A program made the translations under genes and the position numbers. The notes below the pieces were generated by a model. It had not been told where the DNA came from and did no database searches. It saw only the letters and a program-made list of their open reading frames with translations. A stretch of DNA of 56,203 bases from a virus (Duplodnaviria > Heunggongvirae > Uroviricota > Caudoviricetes): IMG/VR virus record IMGVR_UViG_3300034106_001169; one strand, given 5' to 3'. Below are positions 25,653 through 50,288 of this stretch, in pieces. Numbering within the stretch: position 1 is the first letter of the stretch; the number at the start of each line of letters is the position of its first letter.

Positions 25653-28007
25653 ATGATTTTAGAAAAACAAACAGAATCACACATCCTTGAAGAAGGAAGT
25701 ACACAGGAAACTGTGAAAATGTCACTAGACTTAGATTCTGCTCAGGTCCTGATGCAGATGTTAAGTAAGAATCTATATTCAGATTCAGTAGGCTCTACTA
25801 TCAGAGAATGTGCATCCAATGCACTAGATAGTCATAGAAGAGCTGGGTGTGACAAGCCTATCATTGTTTCATTTAAGAGAAACATGCAGGCAGATACATT
25901 TGAATTTGCTGTTGAAGACTTTGGTATTGGTCTAGATGCAGATGATGTACGCAATATCATCAGCAAGTATGGTAAATCAACCAAGCGTAATAGCAATACA
26001 GAATTAGGTATGATGGGCTTAGGTTTTAAGGCACCTTTAGCATATAGTTCTAGCTTCTACTTTGTATGTAGAAAAGATAGTATGGAACGTAAATACATGA
26101 TGTATGAAGGAGATGATACAAACAGTATTGATCTTTTATATGAAAGGCCTACAACTGAGCCAAATGGTGTAAAGGTTATTGTCCCTGTTAAATATGAAAA
26201 TAGATATAGTTTTACTCAGAAGATCAAAGAACAACTAGCTTATTTTGAGAGTGTTTATTTTGATGTAGATAGCTCTTGGGGAAGAGTAGATAATGATTTT
26301 ACTATACACAGAGCTGAGCATTATCAATATTCTGATCTTGCTACTAATGGTCACATGCATTTGTGTTTAGATAATGTATCCTATCCAATTGACTGGGAGA
26401 AGCTTGGTATTGATAGAATTCCTATGAAACTAGCTTTACGTTTCAGTCTTAGTGATGGATTATTCCCTACACCAAATAGAGAAGCACTTAGATATACACA
26501 AGAAGCTAAAGAAACCATTCTTAAGAAGATAACTACAGTGGCTAATATCTTCATGGAGAAGTTCAATGAGTCTATCACAGATAGTGCTGATATCAAAGCT
26601 ATTATGGATTATTATGGTAATAATGATAAGTCTATTGATAGTTCTTTTATAGGACAATCAGGAAGAATTGATATAAGCTATTTACTTAAACACGCTACAA
26701 TTAGTAGTAAGCAGCCTAAATTAAAGGGTGCAGAATCATTAAACTTAAAGAGAATAGCTGAAATGTGTAAAGATTACATGTTAGCTGAGTATCAAGTGAA
26801 GTTTAGATACAATACCAATAGATTTAATAAGTCTACTAGTTATTGGACCACTAACTTAAGAGTGAATGATTTTTCAGGTGGTCATTTTGGTGGTGTATAT
26901 ATATTTAGTGATAGACTTAGTAAAGGTAAACAAGACTATCTAAGAAGTATATTGGGAGATAATCATAAAACATATTATTTTGTTAGAAAAGATAAACAAT
27001 TTAAGCTTGGATCTAAGACAGTTACAGATTGGGAAACTTATCATTCTATACTAGATTTGAAAAACCATCCAAAGACTCAATGGAGACAGATGATTAAAGA
27101 GTTTAGATATGTAATAGATATGTATTCTAAAAACTTTATTGATGTAGATGCTATTGATATACCACAAGCATTCATAGATGCTCAGAAAGCTAAAAGAATG
27201 AAAGTTCTAGCTAAGACTACCACTGTAAAGGGTATTAAGAAGGTTAGAATGAAAGGTGAATTCTCTGGTAAAAGAGGTGAATCAACACAACATACTCTAA
27301 CTGACCAATATTGTAAGTTTGTTCCTAATACGTACAAAATGGAGGACATCCATAAACTAAAGATGTTACATGTATATGCTAAGGAAGTTGATAAAAAGCA
27401 AATGGACAAAGCTTGGTCTTGTTTTAGCAAGCACGCAGCATTCATATTAGTTGCCCAAGCTACATTTGATAACTTACAGAAAGCAGATTTACATAACTGG
27501 ATAACATTAGATAAATTTATGGAAGGTAAAAATAGACCATTTAAGACAATAACTACAGCGTTCTTAATTGATGAGCTAATGACAAATCATAATGCTACAT
27601 TCAAAAGAATTAATGTAGTTAGAGATATATCTGCTGATTTAGCAGATAAATTACAGATATTGTATGATTATGATAACAATCACAATAGAAGCTATGCAGA
27701 TGCTACAACTAAAAAAGCAGTTATAGAACATGCTAAAGCAAACAACTTATTTGACCAGCCTATATATCTAGTGTATCAGCAAGTTAATGAGGTGCTTACT
27801 AAGCTAAAGTTCTTAGATGCTATATTAGATACAATGCATTATAGCAATTCTAAAAAGGATTCTCCTATGATGATAGCTATAGTTGATCTTTTCAAATATC
27901 ATAAGCACAGAGTGAATCTAGAGCATTATAAAATTACACTAACAGAAGATGCCCCTTTAGAGGAGGTGTTAACACAAGACACAATTGAAGAATTAGAAAC
28001 AATTTAA
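25653..28007 (+). CDS. rIIA: rIIA-like protein (N-terminal GHKL/HATPase domain)
   Basis: NLYSDSVGSTIRECASNALDSH, VEDFGIGLD, YGKSTKR, GMMGLGFKAP, NGVKV; adjacent rIIB-like gene. Confidence 0.85.
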   Translation: MILEKQTESHILEEGSTQETVKMSLDLDSAQVLMQMLSKNLYSDSVGSTIRECASNALDSHRRAGCDKPIIVSFKRNMQADTFEFAVEDFGIGLDADDVRNIISKYGKSTKRNSNTELGMMGLGFKAPLAYSSSFYFVCRKDSMERKYMMYEGDDTNSIDLLYERPTTEPNGVKVIVPVKYENRYSFTQKIKEQLAYFESVYFDVDSSWGRVDNDFTIHRAEHYQYSDLATNGHMHLCLDNVSYPIDWEKLGIDRIPMKLALRFSLSDGLFPTPNREALRYTQEAKETILKKITTVANIFMEKFNESITDSADIKAIMDYYGNNDKSIDSSFIGQSGRIDISYLLKHATISSKQPKLKGAESLNLKRIAEMCKDYMLAEYQVKFRYNTNRFNKSTSYWTTNLRVNDFSGGHFGGVYIFSDRLSKGKQDYLRSILGDNHKTYYFVRKDKQFKLGSKTVTDWETYHSILDLKNHPKTQWRQMIKEFRYVIDMYSKNFIDVDAIDIPQAFIDAQKAKRMKVLAKTTTVKGIKKVRMKGEFSGKRGESTQHTLTDQYCKFVPNTYKMEDIHKLKMLHVYAKEVDKKQMDKAWSCFSKHAAFILVAQATFDNLQKADLHNWITLDKFMEGKNRPFKTITTAFLIDELMTNHNATFKRINVVRDISADLADKLQILYDYDNNHNRSYADATTKKAVIEHAKANNLFDQPIYLVYQQVNEVLTKLKFLDAILDTMHYSNSKKDSPMMIAIVDLFKYHKHRVNLEHYKITLTEDAPLEEVLTQDTIEELETI

Positions 28008-28018
28008 AAAAACAAAAC

Positions 28019-29560
28019 ATGGGACTATTTAGCCTAAACTGGTTTAAGAGCCAGAAAGAGAAACAGATTCAAGATTTAAAAAATGAAATCAAAATTGCAG
28101 AATTAGAAAAAACATTAGAGAGAACAATTGCTCATCCTAAACCATCAGATACTTTTCAAACTGGTTATAATCCTTTTACTGCTGCTACATGGACACCTGC
28201 ACCAATCTCTAAGCCATATATGAATATAAAGATGGTAAATGATACATTGACTATTATATTAAATGATGGTTCTATTATTACTAAGTCTCCTGCAACTGCA
28301 GGGGATTTTGATAAAGCAAGAGAATGTAAGACAGAATCTTGTTTATTAAGTCTTGTAAGCTCTCCAGAAATAAAAGAAGAAAAGAGAAAAGCTGAAGCTG
28401 AGTATGAGAAAGCTAAAGCTATTCAAAGGGGTGCTGAATTCTTAGCTACCCTTGAGGAATTTGAGATGAAGAACAATGCTTTGTATTTAAAAGGTATCAG
28501 TAGAAGTCTACCTCCATTACTAGTAGAAGAGTTCTTAGAAGTGGTTGGTAAATATGGTGGTACAAAAAATGATGAATTCAATGCTTTGCATAGATTCTTT
28601 ATGTGGTGCTGCTTGAATCCAAGAGCTGAGGTTGCAGATAAGTTATTTACCTTCTTGAAGAAGAATAGCTTTAGCATCACTAAGCAGGGCTTCTTTGTAG
28701 CTTTGAGGAATGTAGTTACATTGCATGGTTCTACAGAATTAGTACAATTCATAAGCAATGCTTATAATAAAGTGAAGGCTGTTTGGAAGAAGAAACCTGA
28801 AGATTACACTGTATTCTTACAAGATGATGGTACATACAAAATGGTTCATAAAGATTTACTTACAAAAGAAGAAACATGTACATATTGTGATGGATCTGGT
28901 TATATTCCAGGGTATGATGAAGATGGTTTTGAGTCAGATGATGATGATAATAGAGAATGTCCAGATTGTGATACTACAGGTAAAGTTAATGTAACTTGTG
29001 AAGATGAATATGGTCAACCTATTGGTAATCTGACAGAACTATATCTTGATCTTCCTAACAGAGCAGAGAATAGATTTACAGATGCTCATACAAGAACATT
29101 TGATATCAGAATTGGTAGACCAGTAAGTATGCCTATGGAAAAGTGCAGATGGAATACTGATGACTGTGGTGCTGAAGGTCTACACTTTACTAGTGATGAG
29201 ATTCATTATGTAGGATGTGGAGATACAAGCGTTCTTGTACTTATTAACCCAATGAAGGTGGTAGGTATTGGTGAGTCTAAGGGTAGATGCTATGAGTATT
29301 TACCAATTATGACTGTGCCACGTGAGGAAGCAACAGACATTTTACATGATCTTGACTTTGATACACTAGAGCTAGATGAGAGTTATGCTGTACGTGAATT
29401 AGATAACTTGGCTGAGAAGGCTAAGGAAGGATTTACAGAAGAGCGTAAGAAGTATGATTTCAATCTCCCTGCTCTATCTGCTGTAGAAGTTTATACAATT
29501 GTAAAGAGTCTTGATGAAATAAAACAAGAAATATCTAAAAGAATTGTAGAAATTGATTAA
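28019..29560 (+). CDS. rIIB: rIIB-like protein with an inserted CxxCxGxG zinc finger
   Basis: ITKQGFFVALRNV, CGAEGLHF, VLINPMKVVGI, KGRCYEY; follows rIIA. Confidence 0.8.
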   Translation: MGLFSLNWFKSQKEKQIQDLKNEIKIAELEKTLERTIAHPKPSDTFQTGYNPFTAATWTPAPISKPYMNIKMVNDTLTIILNDGSIITKSPATAGDFDKARECKTESCLLSLVSSPEIKEEKRKAEAEYEKAKAIQRGAEFLATLEEFEMKNNALYLKGISRSLPPLLVEEFLEVVGKYGGTKNDEFNALHRFFMWCCLNPRAEVADKLFTFLKKNSFSITKQGFFVALRNVVTLHGSTELVQFISNAYNKVKAVWKKKPEDYTVFLQDDGTYKMVHKDLLTKEETCTYCDGSGYIPGYDEDGFESDDDDNRECPDCDTTGKVNVTCEDEYGQPIGNLTELYLDLPNRAENRFTDAHTRTFDIRIGRPVSMPMEKCRWNTDDCGAEGLHFTSDEIHYVGCGDTSVLVLINPMKVVGIGESKGRCYEYLPIMTVPREEATDILHDLDFDTLELDESYAVRELDNLAEKAKEGFTEERKKYDFNLPALSAVEVYTIVKSLDEIKQEISKRIVEID

Positions 29561-46386: not shown

Positions 46387-46791
46387 TTATTTTAAACTTT
46401 GAAACTGTATTAGAATAATTGCGATTAATATAATCTTTTGAGCTAGATGGTACCTCTCCATAGTATCTATGCTACTTTCTCTTCTAAAGAAGATCTCCCT
46501 GTTAGCCTCATACTTCCATTTGTATTGCATTGCATCATAAAGCTTTCTTCCTAGACTATCACATTTGTTTTGTAATGAGTCTATAATAAGTCTATTTGCT
46601 TGAGCATCAACCTTTAATGAATCTATTTGAAACCTATATTGTTTATATAATGTATTAATTGCATTCCCTTGTTCAATGGTCATTATCACCACAGAATCCC
46701 TACCTATCTTTCTTGTCTTTGGGTATTGGGAGTAGGATGAAATTGCTACCAGTGTCAGAACTAACACTATCAAGAGCTGCTTTAACTTCAT
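46387..46791 (-). CDS. Signal-peptide coiled-coil protein, spanin-like candidate
   Basis: N-terminal signal, coiled coil, C-terminal hydrophobic tail; start lies about 90 nt inside the upstream lipoprotein gene. Confidence 0.55.
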   Translation of the reverse strand: MKLKQLLIVLVLTLVAISSYSQYPKTRKIGRDSVVIMTIEQGNAINTLYKQYRFQIDSLKVDAQANRLIIDSLQNKCDSLGRKLYDAMQYKWKYEANREIFFRRESSIDTMERYHLAQKIILIAIILIQFQSLK

Positions 46792-47041
46792 TTAATTCTA
46801 ATTTAAGTGTTGTAACTGTTTCATTTAGGTTAGTTATCTTCTCAACTGTTTCTGTAACAATCTTCTTTTGTGTCTCAGTAGCTTGGGCTTGAACTTGTAA
46901 GCTTAGTTTATTATTTGTTTCAACTTTGCTAAGAAGCTCTTCAAACTCCCTGTCTTCTTGAATAGAAGGATCAACTTGTTGAGCAGTTGTAGTTTGGCAT
47001 CCATAGATGAGTGGTATTAATATGATTAATAAATATTTCAT
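46700..47041 (-). CDS. Coiled-coil lipoprotein, spanin-like candidate
   Basis: MKYLLIILIPLIYG-C lipobox followed by a long coiled coil. Confidence 0.6.
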   Translation of the reverse strand: MKYLLIILIPLIYGCQTTTAQQVDPSIQEDREFEELLSKVETNNKLSLQVQAQATETQKKIVTETVEKITNLNETVTTLKLELNEVKAALDSVSSDTGSNFILLPIPKDKKDR

Positions 47042-47343
47042 TAGTTAAGCTTTTTGATTGCTCCCAACTGTTGCAAAGTCTGCAACTGTGTAGTGGTTAC
47101 AGCCTTAGCTGAATCACTAACTCTCAAAGATTCTTGTACCCTATCTAACCTATTTTCCACCTTTTCAATACGTACATTCTGAGAAGTTGCCTGCTCTTTA
47201 AATGTTGTACGAACATCTATGTATAGGTATGAAATAGCAATGAGCACCAAGAAAAGGGTGCCCACAATTGGGTTTTTAGCAAACTCCTTAAAGCTTATAG
47301 GCAATGGGTTTGCTGATATATTTGTTTCTTTCTTTGCTGCCAT
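47041..47343 (-). CDS. Single-pass membrane coiled-coil protein
   Basis: PIVGTLFLVLIAISYLYID TM segment then a coiled coil. Confidence 0.65.
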   Translation of the reverse strand: MAAKKETNISANPLPISFKEFAKNPIVGTLFLVLIAISYLYIDVRTTFKEQATSQNVRIEKVENRLDRVQESLRVSDSAKAVTTTQLQTLQQLGAIKKLN

Positions 47344-47489
47344 TATTTATAGTTTTTTAAAACTTGTTGAGCATTAAGTGCTGTCCATACATTATATAGC
47401 ACCTCACTGTTATGTTGTAATAGTTCTGCTTTTTTAATTCCAGAGCGTCTGCTACGCATTGCTTTAGGTTTTTTCTTAGCGTTTGCCAT
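47343..47489 (-). CDS. 48-aa basic peptide (not in ORF track)
   Basis: MANAKKKPKAMRSRRSGIKKAELLQHNSEVLYNVWTALNAQQVLKNYK; TAATG coupling to the downstream gene. Confidence 0.6.
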   Translation of the reverse strand: MANAKKKPKAMRSRRSGIKKAELLQHNSEVLYNVWTALNAQQVLKNYK

Positions 47490-47494
47490 ATTAG

Positions 47495-48247
47495 TTATTT
47501 TTTATCTTTTTTCTCATCTGAAGTTGCATATTTAATACCCATAATTGTTCCTACAATTGAGAATGCATTAGTAAGAAGTACACTGAACATGTTAGACCAG
47601 GTTGAACCAATTATTTGAGTATCCTTATTTGATAGAATAGCAAATGAGTACATTATGGTGGTAATAAAGCCTACGCTCATAATCACGAACAAGGCAGATT
47701 TAACAATTGTTTTAATCAACTCATTTTGACTCTTTTTTATAGTTGCATCCAAATCATTTACCGCTATATTTTTTTCTATCTCTATTGCTTCTCTTAACTT
47801 ATTAGAATTATTTAACTCTGCTTGTAAAGTTTTAGATAGCTCATCTATTTTGTTTTTACTAACAATAGTTTCACTAATGTCAGTAGCAATCTTCATCACC
47901 TTAGTAATAGCACCATTCTCGTCAAAAATTGGGTTGTAAGTTGCTTGTAAGTAAATGGGGCTACCATCTATTTTCCTTCTCTCAAATTCTCCTTCATAGA
48001 ATTTACCAGCTTTTAATGTTTCCCAAAATGTTTTATATTCATCAGATTTAGAATACTCATAACTGACAAAAATACTATGATGTTTACCAATTAACTTATC
48101 ATGCTCCTCTTCACCAAAACCCATAGCCTTTAAAAAAATAGCATTAACTCCAAGTATAAAACCTTCAAGGTCAAAGTAAATAATAGCATTGCTACGATTA
48201 ATAGCCTCCATTCTACTAAATAGCTCCTCCTTTGATAAGTTTTTCAT
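47495..48247 (-). CDS. PAS-PAC domain protein with coiled coil and two C-terminal TM helices
   Basis: AINRSNAIIYFDLEG...VNAIFLKAMG...LIGKHHSIFV...FWETLKAGKFYEGEFERRKIDGSPIYLQATYNPIFDENGAITKVMKIATDIS resembles chemoreceptor (BdlA-like) PAS; no kinase or MCP output domain. Confidence 0.88.
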   Translation of the reverse strand: MKNLSKEELFSRMEAINRSNAIIYFDLEGFILGVNAIFLKAMGFGEEEHDKLIGKHHSIFVSYEYSKSDEYKTFWETLKAGKFYEGEFERRKIDGSPIYLQATYNPIFDENGAITKVMKIATDISETIVSKNKIDELSKTLQAELNNSNKLREAIEIEKNIAVNDLDATIKKSQNELIKTIVKSALFVIMSVGFITTIMYSFAILSNKDTQIIGSTWSNMFSVLLTNAFSIVGTIMGIKYATSDEKKDKK

Positions 48248-48266
48248 TTATTGTATATTTTTGTTA

Positions 48267-48872
48267 TTATATACTACCATTTAAAAGGTTATTGTATTCA
48301 TTGAAGTGTTTGATACGATCTGGAAGACCAATGGTACCACCATTAACACGTTTAGTCACCTTAGTTACCACAGCATCTGTAGCTCCCTCATCAGCGATCT
48401 TGTGTAATCCATTCTTATGAAAGAACCAAGCAGCAGATAAAAGTGGGTACTTTGTAGCTATAAGGTCTGGGTTAGCTAGGATATCATCTTCAACTGTTTT
48501 ATCAAAAGCAGCGTAGTTATCTTTCCCTGTTAACTGAATGTATCCACGTCCTCTAAACTTATAACCTTCTCCAGAAGCCTGAGGACCATTACCCATACGA
48601 TTAGCATAGACAATATTGGCAATCTTTTCAGGCTTGCGTTCAAACTCTTTAGCACTTTCAGCAGTAAAGTACTTCTTAAAAATGCTCTGTAAACCAGCAG
48701 CACCATAGTTTAAGTTCTCTGACACAGCTTTGAATCCACCTGATTCATGTCCTGTTTGTGCTAAGAAATGAGCCAAACGTAATGCTGTATTGATTTCAAA
48801 CTTATCTACTACACCAGGGATTTGTGCAATCACTGTGTCTGGAATGTGTCCTTTTAATTTATCTACGTTCAT
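48267..48872 (-). CDS. GH19 (chitinase/lysozyme-like) endolysin
   Basis: LAHFLAQTGHESGGF, ENLNY, FRGRGYIQLTGKDNY, TKRVNGGTIGLPDR. Confidence 0.93.
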   Translation of the reverse strand: MNVDKLKGHIPDTVIAQIPGVVDKFEINTALRLAHFLAQTGHESGGFKAVSENLNYGAAGLQSIFKKYFTAESAKEFERKPEKIANIVYANRMGNGPQASGEGYKFRGRGYIQLTGKDNYAAFDKTVEDDILANPDLIATKYPLLSAAWFFHKNGLHKIADEGATDAVVTKVTKRVNGGTIGLPDRIKHFNEYNNLLNGSI

Positions 48873-48874
48873 AG

Positions 48875-49468
48875 TTAATTAATTTTCCAATAGGAATTTA
48901 CACCATATACAAGTTGATTGTTACCATTGATGCCAATGTTTAAGCCAAACATTTTATCACGTTTAGACTTGTATAACAATCCTCCTTGAAGAAGTTCTAA
49001 TCCATTCTTGTTACCTGTAACACCACCACCAATAAATAGAGCTCCCTTAGGAGGAGCCTGCTTAGTGATAGTGTTTGTTACAGTGATTGTAGGAATCTTA
49101 TAATTGTACTTATAAGACCTACCATGTATCTCGTTTTTATGTACTGTATCAGTTACAGCTACATAGCCCAAAGTATCTATATTTACTGTGTCAGTATAGA
49201 GAGTCTTTGCCAAATAGGCAATGACCAAAGCATCATATTGTGCTTTAAGCTTAGGGTAATTTGTGTCTGCAATATATTCTGCAGGTAGTGTGTCGTGTAT
49301 TATCTGTTTAATCTTTAACTTCTTGACAATCAATGAGTCATGTACTTGCCAAGCTGTATCATGTAATGTTACAGTGTCAGCTTTTATTTGAGGATAATTA
49401 CATCCTTTATTTTGAAAAGCCATTGCAAATACTAAAGCCATTATGATAAACGTCAAAATCTTATTCAT
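48875..49468 (-). CDS. Membrane-anchored lysis accessory (spanin-like) protein
   Basis: N-terminal TM/signal ending NKGC, Bacteroidota-style DTVT/HDT repeats, C-terminal beta strands; adjacent to the endolysin. Confidence 0.5.
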   Translation of the reverse strand: MNKILTFIIMALVFAMAFQNKGCNYPQIKADTVTLHDTAWQVHDSLIVKKLKIKQIIHDTLPAEYIADTNYPKLKAQYDALVIAYLAKTLYTDTVNIDTLGYVAVTDTVHKNEIHGRSYKYNYKIPTITVTNTITKQAPPKGALFIGGGVTGNKNGLELLQGGLLYKSKRDKMFGLNIGINGNNQLVYGVNSYWKIN

Positions 49469-49712
49469 TATCTTCAGTTTGGTTTTTCTTATTGATAAAC
49501 TTGTCTACAGAAGCAATTCCAAAACAAGCTATGGTCAAAACTTTGAATGAGTCATATATGAACTCATTGACAACCAACTCTTTATGCATACTTCCAGTGA
49601 CAATATCTGCTACAGCAAATACCACCATGATTACAAAAGAAGCAAAGCCAATTACAGCTTTCTCATTGATTGTGTTATTATCATCAAATAGATCAGAAAA
49701 GAACTTTTTCAT
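49461..49712 (-). CDS. Holin candidate (two TM helices)
   Basis: INEKAVIGFASFVIMVVF...VLTIACFGIASVDKF with a charged C-terminus. Confidence 0.6.
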   Translation of the reverse strand: MKKFFSDLFDDNNTINEKAVIGFASFVIMVVFAVADIVTGSMHKELVVNEFIYDSFKVLTIACFGIASVDKFINKKNQTEDNE

Positions 49713-49983
49713 TTCTTATAATTAATTTATTATTAGGTAATATTGCTAGGTCTTTAAATACTGTAGGTGTTATAGGAACACTAGTAGGGAAAGAAGCAGC
49801 TGTTTTATAGACTACTCTTTCTAGATTGTCTATACGTGTCTTGTCTACATTAGACTGAGCCATTAGCTGCTTTACATCAGACTTGATCTCGTTTACATCA
49901 TTCCAAATTAGTAAGGCCAGTGCTGATGCTAGACTTGGAAATATCCATACTTTGAATGCACTAATTGCAGGGGTTTCTCTCAT
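49693..49983 (-). CDS. Single-TM coiled-coil protein, holin/antiholin candidate (start likely MRETPA at 49983)
   Basis: KVWIFPSLASALALLIW then a coiled coil NEIKSDVKQL...TRIDNLER. Confidence 0.55.
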   Translation of the reverse strand: MRETPAISAFKVWIFPSLASALALLIWNDVNEIKSDVKQLMAQSNVDKTRIDNLERVVYKTAASFPTSVPITPTVFKDLAILPNNKLIIRNEKVLF

Positions 49984-50040
49984 GGTTATAAATAAAAATG
50001 CACCCAAGTTGGGTGTAGTGTTTAAAATATTTAGATTTAA

Positions 50041-50247
50041 TTATTTCTTTAGACCATACTTGATCCACTTGTACCAGATACGTTCATGGATAAAGTATTG
50101 GATGGGCTTGTAAATAAGCTCAGCTACACCAAAGGCAGCTCCCATCTTGATAGAACCACTGATCCACCACATCAAAAAGAACCCTATTAGGGTACTAATT
50201 ATCCTATAGCTAATAGTCTTAGCTATGTGTCTCTTAACCAATGGCAT
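50041..50247 (-). CDS. DUF2061-like small membrane protein
   Basis: KRHIAKTISYRII...YFIHERIW; start MPLVKR at 50247. Confidence 0.85.
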   Translation of the reverse strand: MPLVKRHIAKTISYRIISTLIGFFLMWWISGSIKMGAAFGVAELIYKPIQYFIHERIWYKWIKYGLKK

Positions 50248-50256
50248 ATGTAATTG

Positions 50257-50288
50257 CAAAACTATGTAAAAAAGTTGAAACTACCAAA
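50257..50288 (-). promoter_or_regulatory. Bacteroidota promoter for DUF2061 and the lysis cassette
   Basis: TTTG (50285-50288)-N20-TAGTTTTG (50257-50264), exact consensus. Confidence 0.7.

Follow-up and report, generated by a model that had tools for sequence, protein, structure and literature searches.

Why a phage should carry, directly after its endolysin gene, a gene for a sensor domain joined to two membrane helices is the question raised by the locus described here, which lies in a stretch of 56,203 nucleotides (nt) from a lake-water phage (IMG/VR record IMGVR_UViG_3300034106_001169; the whole of this stretch is referred to as the window). The gene (47495..48247, minus strand) encodes a protein of 250 amino acids (aa) with a PAS domain, a coiled coil and two transmembrane (TM) helices, in the following the PAS-2TM protein, and was recognized as a one-PAS member of its family from the list of open reading frames (ORFs), Pfam, its homologues and an AlphaFold2 model. 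It starts after the stop codon of the gene of a GH19 endolysin (48267..48872, minus strand; 201 aa; phrog_181, E 1e-67; Glyco_hydro_19, E 1.5e-9), from which it is separated by 19 nt (48248-48266), and not by the 20 nt given in an earlier reading of the sequence alone. That sequence-only reading took the protein to be a ligand- or redox-gated holin or antiholin that couples lysis timing to host physiology.

In the textbook account, lysis timing is set by holin accumulation, and the one well-studied signal input is the lysis inhibition of phage T4. The PAS-2TM protein, an accessory member of the lysis cassette, may instead act in the membrane as a signal-gated effector by which the time of lysis is adjusted, a proposal for which the balance of the sequence evidence is, in our judgement, about even. 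More tentatively, and with somewhat less than an even chance of being correct, it can be proposed that lake and ocean phages carry a signalling pathway of their own, ending in a two-helix effector that sets the moment of lysis and built either as a three-gene phosphorelay or, as in the window, as a one-protein short circuit with a fused PAS or GAF sensor. Such a pathway would represent a type of lysis-timing control not described before, in which the intracellular state of the host (redox, energy or a metabolite) counts besides holin accumulation. If so, many environmental phages would read the internal state of the host before bursting, with a bearing on burst size and infection dynamics in slow-growing aquatic bacteria, and also on how phage-borne two-component systems, which to our knowledge are almost undescribed, deliver their output.

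Anatomy of the one-PAS protein

The PAS domain (residues 19-127; 47867..48193, minus strand, as are all segments of the gene given here) is matched by the PAS_3, PAS_9, PAS and PAS_4 models, all above the Pfam cut-offs (E 2e-11 to 5e-8), and by TIGR00229 of NCBIfam (E 4e-13). It is followed by a coiled-coil signalling helix (residues 128-176; 47720..47866), which is continuous with TM1 (residues ~177-205; 47633..47719; limits from hydropathy, the model and conservation), by a short outer loop, SNKDTQIIGSTWSN (residues 206-219; 47591..47632), and by TM2, MFSVLLTNAFSIVGTIMGIKYA (residues 220-241; 47525..47590). Hydropathy by itself places TM1 at ~181-204 and TM2 at 220-238, after which comes the charged tail KYATSDEKKDKK. 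In the AlphaFold2 model, obtained from a 36-row alignment (mean pLDDT 83.6), an N-cap helix and a five-stranded PAS core (20-123) are followed by an unbroken helix (125-205) that runs from the coiled coil into TM1, a four-residue turn (206-209) and a second helix (210-244). The predicted topology is N-in/C-in, with a 175-residue cytoplasmic sensor part and 9 residues after TM2. No kinase, methyl-accepting chemotaxis protein (MCP), HAMP, GGDEF or other output domain was found in the protein by the Pfam and NCBIfam scans, which bear out what the sequence-only reading had said of the absence of kinase, MCP and GGDEF outputs. The succession of PAS domain, coiled coil and two TM helices that it had described is also confirmed, although the PAS domain is not simply a complete one, but a hybrid of two PAS domains of the family.

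The hybrid nature emerges from comparison with the relatives. Thousands of proteins were recovered in a large database search; identity to the query is 69-81% among the best 120, all of which are 356-386 aa long. The usual form of the family has two tandem PAS domains in ~371 aa. When the window protein is compared by BLASTP with P0002, two alignments are obtained, one of residues 1-140 with the first PAS domain (PAS1) and one of residues 15-249 with the second (PAS2), the coiled coil and the hairpin formed by the two TM helices. Against 117 two-PAS homologues, the first ~50 residues are PAS1-specific, residues 62-70 and the linker are PAS2-specific, and the switch between them sits near the invariant block IGKHHSIF (~residues 50-62), which is identical in both repeats. 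This arrangement would fit an unequal crossover between the PAS repeats. The same junction is found in P0122, L030 and L033, from other samples, and non-synonymous divergence (dN) between the one-PAS copies that were fetched is 0.09-0.17, with synonymous divergence (dS) saturated. Because the junction recurs in other samples and dN is low with respect to saturated dS, the one-PAS form is an inherited variant under purifying selection, and an assembly artefact, also considered, was rejected on the same grounds.

As for the signal, the nearest PAS sequences of solved structure are those of MmoS (FAD; E 4e-10), Aer (E 6e-4), phototropin LOV1 and NifL, and the nearest folds (Foldseek E ~1e-10, probability 1.0) are those of LOV-kinase chimeras, YF1, short LOV proteins, NifL and MmoS. 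In our own mapping of the FAD pocket of Aer, made from a sequence alignment, two of the seven residues (N34 and W70) are identical in the window PAS domain and D60 is conservatively replaced by E, while R57, H58, N85 and Y93 are not kept, being replaced by V, S, R and I, respectively. The HH pair of IGKHHSIF is invariant in both PAS repeats and in the PAS-B domain of the phage histidine kinase described below. A flavin or other cofactor in the window PAS domain is, on these sequence comparisons, possible.

With the dimeric PAS/LOV sensors that have J-alpha linkers (YF1, short LOV, NifL and MmoS) the protein shares the N-cap helix, the PAS core and the long C-terminal helix, besides the heptad-periodic linker lengths, seen in its family, that are typical of such signalling helices. 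It differs from them in that its output is a membrane hairpin, and not a kinase or a transcription factor, and in that His57 occupies the position of the LOV cysteine (GKHHSIFVS aligned with GxNCRFLQ); a LOV photoreceptor was rejected because the photoactive Cys is replaced in this way. The similarity extends further with Aer (PAS-FAD, F1 linker, TM hairpin, HAMP and kinase-control domain), which also combines an N-terminal cytoplasmic PAS domain, of the same broad flavin-type clade, with a linker helix and with a hairpin of which the outer loop is very short. However, the PAS-2TM protein is without the HAMP and MCP signalling domains, and its hairpin is its most conserved part and not a mere anchor.

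The hairpin module and its kinase-coupled relatives

The hairpin with its adjacent coiled coil constitutes a module of its own. A profile of the C-terminal 91 residues with the window sequence as row 1 (A3), searched against 1.84 billion representatives, recovered 105 clusters only, 78 of them at E <= 1e-10, and the module is C-terminal in all. The motif DLDxxxKKxQxELIxxIVKxAL...DTxxIGSTWSNxFxxLLTN[AS]FSI[IV]GTIMG[IV]KYA, which follows a long coiled coil, is present in the window protein. Most members are 140-230 aa long and consist of a short conserved cap (LEGNILK...RKKRLEITKQVQ), the coiled coil and the hairpin; the model of one cap-bearing member (pLDDT 87) is a single long helix that runs into TM1, as in the window protein. 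In a minority the cap is replaced by a sensor, namely two PAS domains, one PAS domain, a PAS domain of the PAS-A type (P0141), a GAF domain (P0131) or a SOUL domain.

How strongly the hairpin is constrained can be appreciated from conservation by region, computed over the 117 two-PAS homologues. Mean pairwise identity is 78% in PAS1 (50 of 125 columns invariant) and 69% in PAS2 (36 of 125), and it reaches 93% in the outer loop (10 of 14) and 100% in TM2, where all 22 columns are invariant and a stripe of small and polar residues (T, N, S, S, G, T, G) includes a GxxxG motif. The linkers are no less regular. The cap motif and the TM1-proximal motif of 94 non-fused members are 84, 91/92, 98/99 and so on up to 126 residues apart; every one of the 94 lengths belongs to class 6, 0 or 1 modulo 7, and classes 2-5 are empty. 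In the PAS forms, 51 residues separate the last PAS strand from the TM1-proximal KKSQxELI in 115 of 117 cases. Linker lengths that are fixed or periodic in heptads mark helices that signal by passing on a rotation or piston movement, as is established for PAS, HAMP and kinase linkers. Neither periodicity nor fixity would be expected of a mere membrane anchor, and the hairpin behaves as a constrained output domain that is driven by the sensor domains.

The distribution of the module is equally peculiar. The TM2 motif has at least 599 occurrences in IMG/VR; among 185,579 prokaryote species (one genome each) eight relatives were confirmed, all of them in metagenome-assembled genomes of scattered phyla, which suggests mis-binned phage contigs. 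A tblastn search of 50,697 GenBank phages with the module gave no match, and a search of the GenBank phages with the whole PAS-2TM protein returned unrelated PAS domains only. No model of Pfam, NCBIfam or PADLOC matches the module, for which the sole hint among the PHROGs is phrog_1544, of unknown function (E 0.004-0.008). A fold search of the AlphaFold DB clusters with a kinase-coupled member gave nothing significant (best E 0.67), and a protein-atlas look-up of residues 150-250 returned unnamed viral clusters alone, all below the lead level of 0.9. No account of PAS-bearing lysis proteins, or of phage-encoded kinase/receiver/membrane-protein trios, was found in the literature. The module is, apparently, an undescribed small family that occurs almost only in phage contigs. 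The SLATT effectors of conflict systems are alike in concept, being two-TM modules that serve as the membrane output of a sensor or signalling system, but the module matches no SLATT profile and gives nothing in PADLOC; a sub-threshold SLATT_6 match (E 7e-4) is confined to the neighbouring 100-aa protein.

The same data bear on whether the gene could be a decayed, non-functional fragment of a host aerotaxis receptor or chemoreceptor with the PAS/linker/TM-hairpin arrangement of Aer. The order of these parts does mirror the N-terminal half of Aer, the PAS domain of which is a weak match (6e-4), and homologues are labelled 'methyl-accepting chemotaxis protein' by JGI pipelines; yet no HAMP or MCP remnant is present, the hairpin is common to phage proteins that have no PAS domain, and thousands of database proteins match the query. 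The purifying selection on the one-PAS copies, in which dN is far below saturated dS, the invariance of TM2 in the 117 two-PAS homologues and the near absence of the module from cellular genomes make a host-derived fragment extremely improbable, and it was rejected as close to refuted.

What drives the hairpin where no sensor is fused to it is suggested by the non-fused, kinase-coupled form, which was surveyed in 86 loci. The gene just before the module encodes a receiver-only regulator in 65 of 81 loci, and the gene two before it a 290-710-aa histidine kinase in 64 of 76. Complete operons of kinase, receiver-only regulator and effector are seen in phage contigs at L035:5284-8551 (+) and L045:73-2021 (+), the former contig also carrying purN- and purA-like genes. 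The three consecutive genes of L035 encode a 717-aa membrane histidine kinase with GAF, PAS-A and PAS-B domains and a catalytic core, a receiver-only regulator of 143 aa (143-148 aa in such loci), and a 226-aa module protein, the last 88 residues of which are 66% identical to the window hairpin. Each of the sensor domains of this kinase recurs fused to the module, i.e. GAF in P0131 (65% identity), PAS-A in P0141 (69%) and PAS-B in the family of the window protein, the PAS domain of which is 51% identical to it. Because all three sensor domains of L035 occur fused directly to the module, the latter appears, on evidence of the Rosetta-stone type, to serve the kinase pathway as its output; forms with a fused sensor would be short circuits that have lost the kinase core, the receiver and the cap. 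In the window, where ORFs and Pfam matches were inspected, neither a kinase nor a receiver gene lies beside the PAS-2TM gene, and the locus is not itself of the two-component kind.

A parallel is offered by LytSR with LrgAB/CidAB of staphylococci and Bacillus, in which a two-component system is tied to small membrane proteins that control lysis, and which the kinase-coupled relatives resemble as a trio of kinase, regulator and membrane protein. The proteins are not homologous, however, and LytR is a DNA-binding, transcriptional regulator, whereas the system considered here is phage-encoded and its regulator is receiver-only (143-148 aa), so that the signal would have to pass by protein contact.

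Lysis genes, dispensability and proposed action

The most constant neighbour of the PAS-2TM gene is that of p83, an 83-aa two-TM protein that is holin-like in topology (49461..49712, minus strand, in the window). Taking related loci singly, with no correction for shared ancestry here or in the counts that follow, GH19 or p83 lies within 2 kb of the gene in 32 of 34 PAS-form loci (GH19 in 22, p83 in 25, both in 15). The gene orders vary (GH19, p83, PAS; p83, GH19, PAS; PAS, GH19, p83; PAS, p83; GH19, p83, p48, PAS, p100; p100, PAS, two genes, GH19; and that of the window itself), and the survival of the linkage through at least six of them argues for selection and not for a single inherited block. 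The GAF form (P0131) lies 1.1 kb upstream of GH19 and glucosaminidase genes. Among the 86 kinase-coupled loci an endolysin, belonging to one of three unrelated classes (GH19, Peptidase_M15_3 and Amidase_2), is found within 5 kb in 29, and any lysis-type gene (counting also Phage_holin_4_1, the p83 family and DUF5675) in 40; in the 40 kinase-coupled loci that extend at least 5 kb on both sides, the corresponding figures are 9 and 14. On these figures the fused forms have a strong link to lysis, and the phosphorelay forms a partial one.

The partial linkage leaves room for a membrane effector whose role lies outside lysis: it might serve in superinfection exclusion, in the control of host respiration, in transport or in the envelope, or as a sensor for some other late function, and its proximity to lysis genes would then reflect shared late expression only. 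The kinase-coupled loci devoid of a recognized lysis gene, roughly half of the total, would be accounted for in this way, as would the accessory nature of the gene, which is swappable like a moron, and the invariance of TM2 across diverse phages would suggest a conserved host membrane target. Against it stand the sensor-fused forms, which keep their linkage with GH19 or p83 through many rearrangements, and the association of kinase-coupled forms with three unrelated endolysin classes, and we regard a role unconnected with lysis as rather unlikely.

That the gene is accessory is indicated by G001, the nearest virus record (115,851 bp, 100% complete as estimated by CheckV). Its DNA is 93-97% identical to that of the window on either side of the PAS-2TM gene, and the flanking proteins are 98-100% identical, while the segment bounded by the stop codon of the endolysin gene and the start codon of the following 48-aa gene has been swapped for an unrelated gene. 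The replacement (L036:1113-1508, minus strand, corresponding to G001:100466-100861) lies exactly in the PAS-2TM slot. Its product, of 131 aa, has the N-terminus in the cytoplasm, a single TM helix and a coiled coil on the outer side; it has no significant family match and was found in no other fetched locus. Because this near-identical, complete genome has no copy of the hairpin module anywhere, the PAS-2TM gene is, to judge from the sequences, accessory and dispensable, and the lineage can finish its cycle without it. Natural sets for comparison are provided by nearly identical phages that do or do not have the gene, by members with one or two PAS domains, and by modules that are either fused to a sensor or reached through a phosphorelay.

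Dispensability bears, in turn, on whether the protein could be a sensor-gated holin or pinholin, the hairpin of which oligomerizes into a pore or depolarizing channel at a time set by the PAS domain. Several features would fit a holin of class II topology (a small protein of ~60-150 aa), namely two TM helices in an N-in/C-in topology, a charged C-terminal tail, an endolysin gene as neighbour and an invariant TM2 with a small/polar stripe and GxxxG, as expected of a tightly packed homo-oligomer; in addition, Phage_holin_4_1 was not found in the window or in G001. Yet the hairpin is preceded by the 175-residue sensor, G001 lyses without the gene, and the hairpin is conserved, unlike holins, the sequences of which usually diverge fast. 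The profile search of the C-terminal two-TM part against holin families that had been suggested returned no holin of Pfam or the PHROGs at E <= 0.1, the only match being phrog_1544, of unknown function (E 0.008), and by hhalign the hairpin is unrelated to the neighbouring, holin-like p83 family (probability 1%). Since related phages that carry the module also have a canonical Phage_holin_4_1 besides the p83 family, the protein is likelier to be a regulator than the holin itself, and a holin or pinholin seems distinctly improbable. Of the ligand-gated holin or antiholin proposed earlier there stand the conserved place among lysis genes and the constrained, sensor-driven output; the absence of any holin-family match and the dispensability of the gene do not support it.

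Other observations weigh against an effector of lysis timing as well. Lysis does not need the PAS-2TM protein, to judge from the complete close relative G001, and there are lineages in which the module has no tie to lysis: some 50% of the kinase-coupled loci are without a recognized lysis gene within 5 kb, and have baseplate, dUTPase or unknown genes beside the module. An invariant TM2 is more readily reconciled with a conserved target in the host, or with a pore that assembles itself, than with binding to a protein as variable as p83, copies of which are 30-61% identical to that of the window. A prediction of the complex of hairpin residues 160-250 (A6) with p83 (A7) gave a score of 0.00 with low pLDDT, and was counted neither way. 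Finally, support comes from sequences and models, and the family has been seen in no cultured phage.

For a signal-gated effector of lysis timing, the following mode of action can be envisaged. The cytoplasmic PAS sensor is connected with a two-helix hairpin in the membrane through a rigid coiled-coil helix that preserves register, and the hairpin would be the output. In most relatives the input to the hairpin would come from a phage-encoded histidine kinase through the receiver-only response regulator; in the lineage of the window the PAS sensor of the kinase would have been fused straight to the module, with the usual two PAS domains collapsed into one. A change in the sensor, brought about by a ligand, by redox or otherwise, would travel along the dimeric coiled coil so that the hairpin repacks, and the repacked hairpin would alter a membrane step of lysis, i.e. 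holin triggering or membrane energization. It might do so by binding the holin (in an antiholin-like or pro-holin sense), by an ion leak that sets the holin off, or through some conserved membrane protein of the host. We infer an action on lysis, in either direction, and a cytoplasmic signal through which the time of burst would follow the state of the host.

A role of this kind, in which a signal is coupled to the time of holin triggering, would be shared with T4 lysis inhibition, where the holin T is controlled by the antiholins RI, a periplasmic sensor, and RIII, which is cytoplasmic; in both cases accessory, dispensable proteins are encoded in or near the lysis genes. The two systems differ in that no sequence or profile similarity is found, and in the cytoplasmic PAS domain, rigid helix and two-TM hairpin of the PAS-2TM protein. 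It is the 131-aa protein of G001 that, being N-in with one TM helix and a coiled coil outside, resembles RI or an i-spanin in topology. As far as sequence comparison goes, none of the systems compared here is homologous in the output part.

Neighbouring genes and further observations

The window (GC ~35%) also contains phage genes for a portal protein, large terminase, DNA polymerase, ribonucleotide reductase and a UvsX-like recombinase. A sigma-70 promoter scan was of little use, with 27 sites versus 20 expected, and the hosts probably use other promoter types. No Phage_holin_4_1, or other of the neighbour families searched for, was found in the window.

The genes next to the PAS-2TM gene are all on the minus strand. 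Upstream of the endolysin are those of a 197-aa protein with an N-terminal signal or anchor (48875..49468; ORF list, hydropathy), of p83 and of a 104-aa one-TM protein (49693..50007) with a weak holin PHROG match (E 0.004). Directly downstream of the PAS-2TM gene are those of a 48-aa basic protein (47343..47489), the start of which is the 3' boundary of the cassette swap in G001, of a 100-aa protein with an N-terminal TM helix and a coiled coil, which is i-spanin-like (47041..47343; sub-threshold Rz-like PHROG match, E 0.05), and of a 113-aa lipoprotein-like coiled-coil protein, which is o-spanin-like in topology only (46700..47041). The small membrane genes on the same strand on both flanks that the sequence-only reading had pointed out are indeed there, but the names holin- and spanin-like stem from sub-threshold PHROG matches and topology alone. 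The 113-aa gene shares 92 nt, read in another frame, with the next gene (46387-47041 for the two together, minus strand), the 134-aa product of which has a signal peptide and a C-terminal TM helix; the arrangement is reminiscent of overlapped spanin gene pairs.

With regard to p83, a homologue is encoded immediately upstream of the endolysin in immuto, a Flavobacterium phage in culture, with an annotated holin just downstream, which by analogy supports p83 as a lysis-cassette protein and would indicate a host of the Bacteroidota type. Elsewhere, a DUF5675 protein (phrog_1501, function unknown) is encoded between a p83-like gene and a Phage_holin_4_1 holin (L062:2946-3416, plus strand, and similar loci); it takes the position that the endolysin has in other loci and may be an unrecognized cell-wall hydrolase. 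At the upstream edge of the lysis-like block of the window lies the gene of a DUF2061 small membrane protein (50041-50259, minus strand; E 1.7e-14), found also in L011 and L025. At a distance from the block, adjacent genes (25653-29560, plus strand) encode homologues of T4 RIIA (784 aa; phrog_612, E 1.6e-60) and RIIB (513 aa; phrog_609, E 3e-14), membrane-associated proteins that have historically been linked to rapid-lysis phenotypes.

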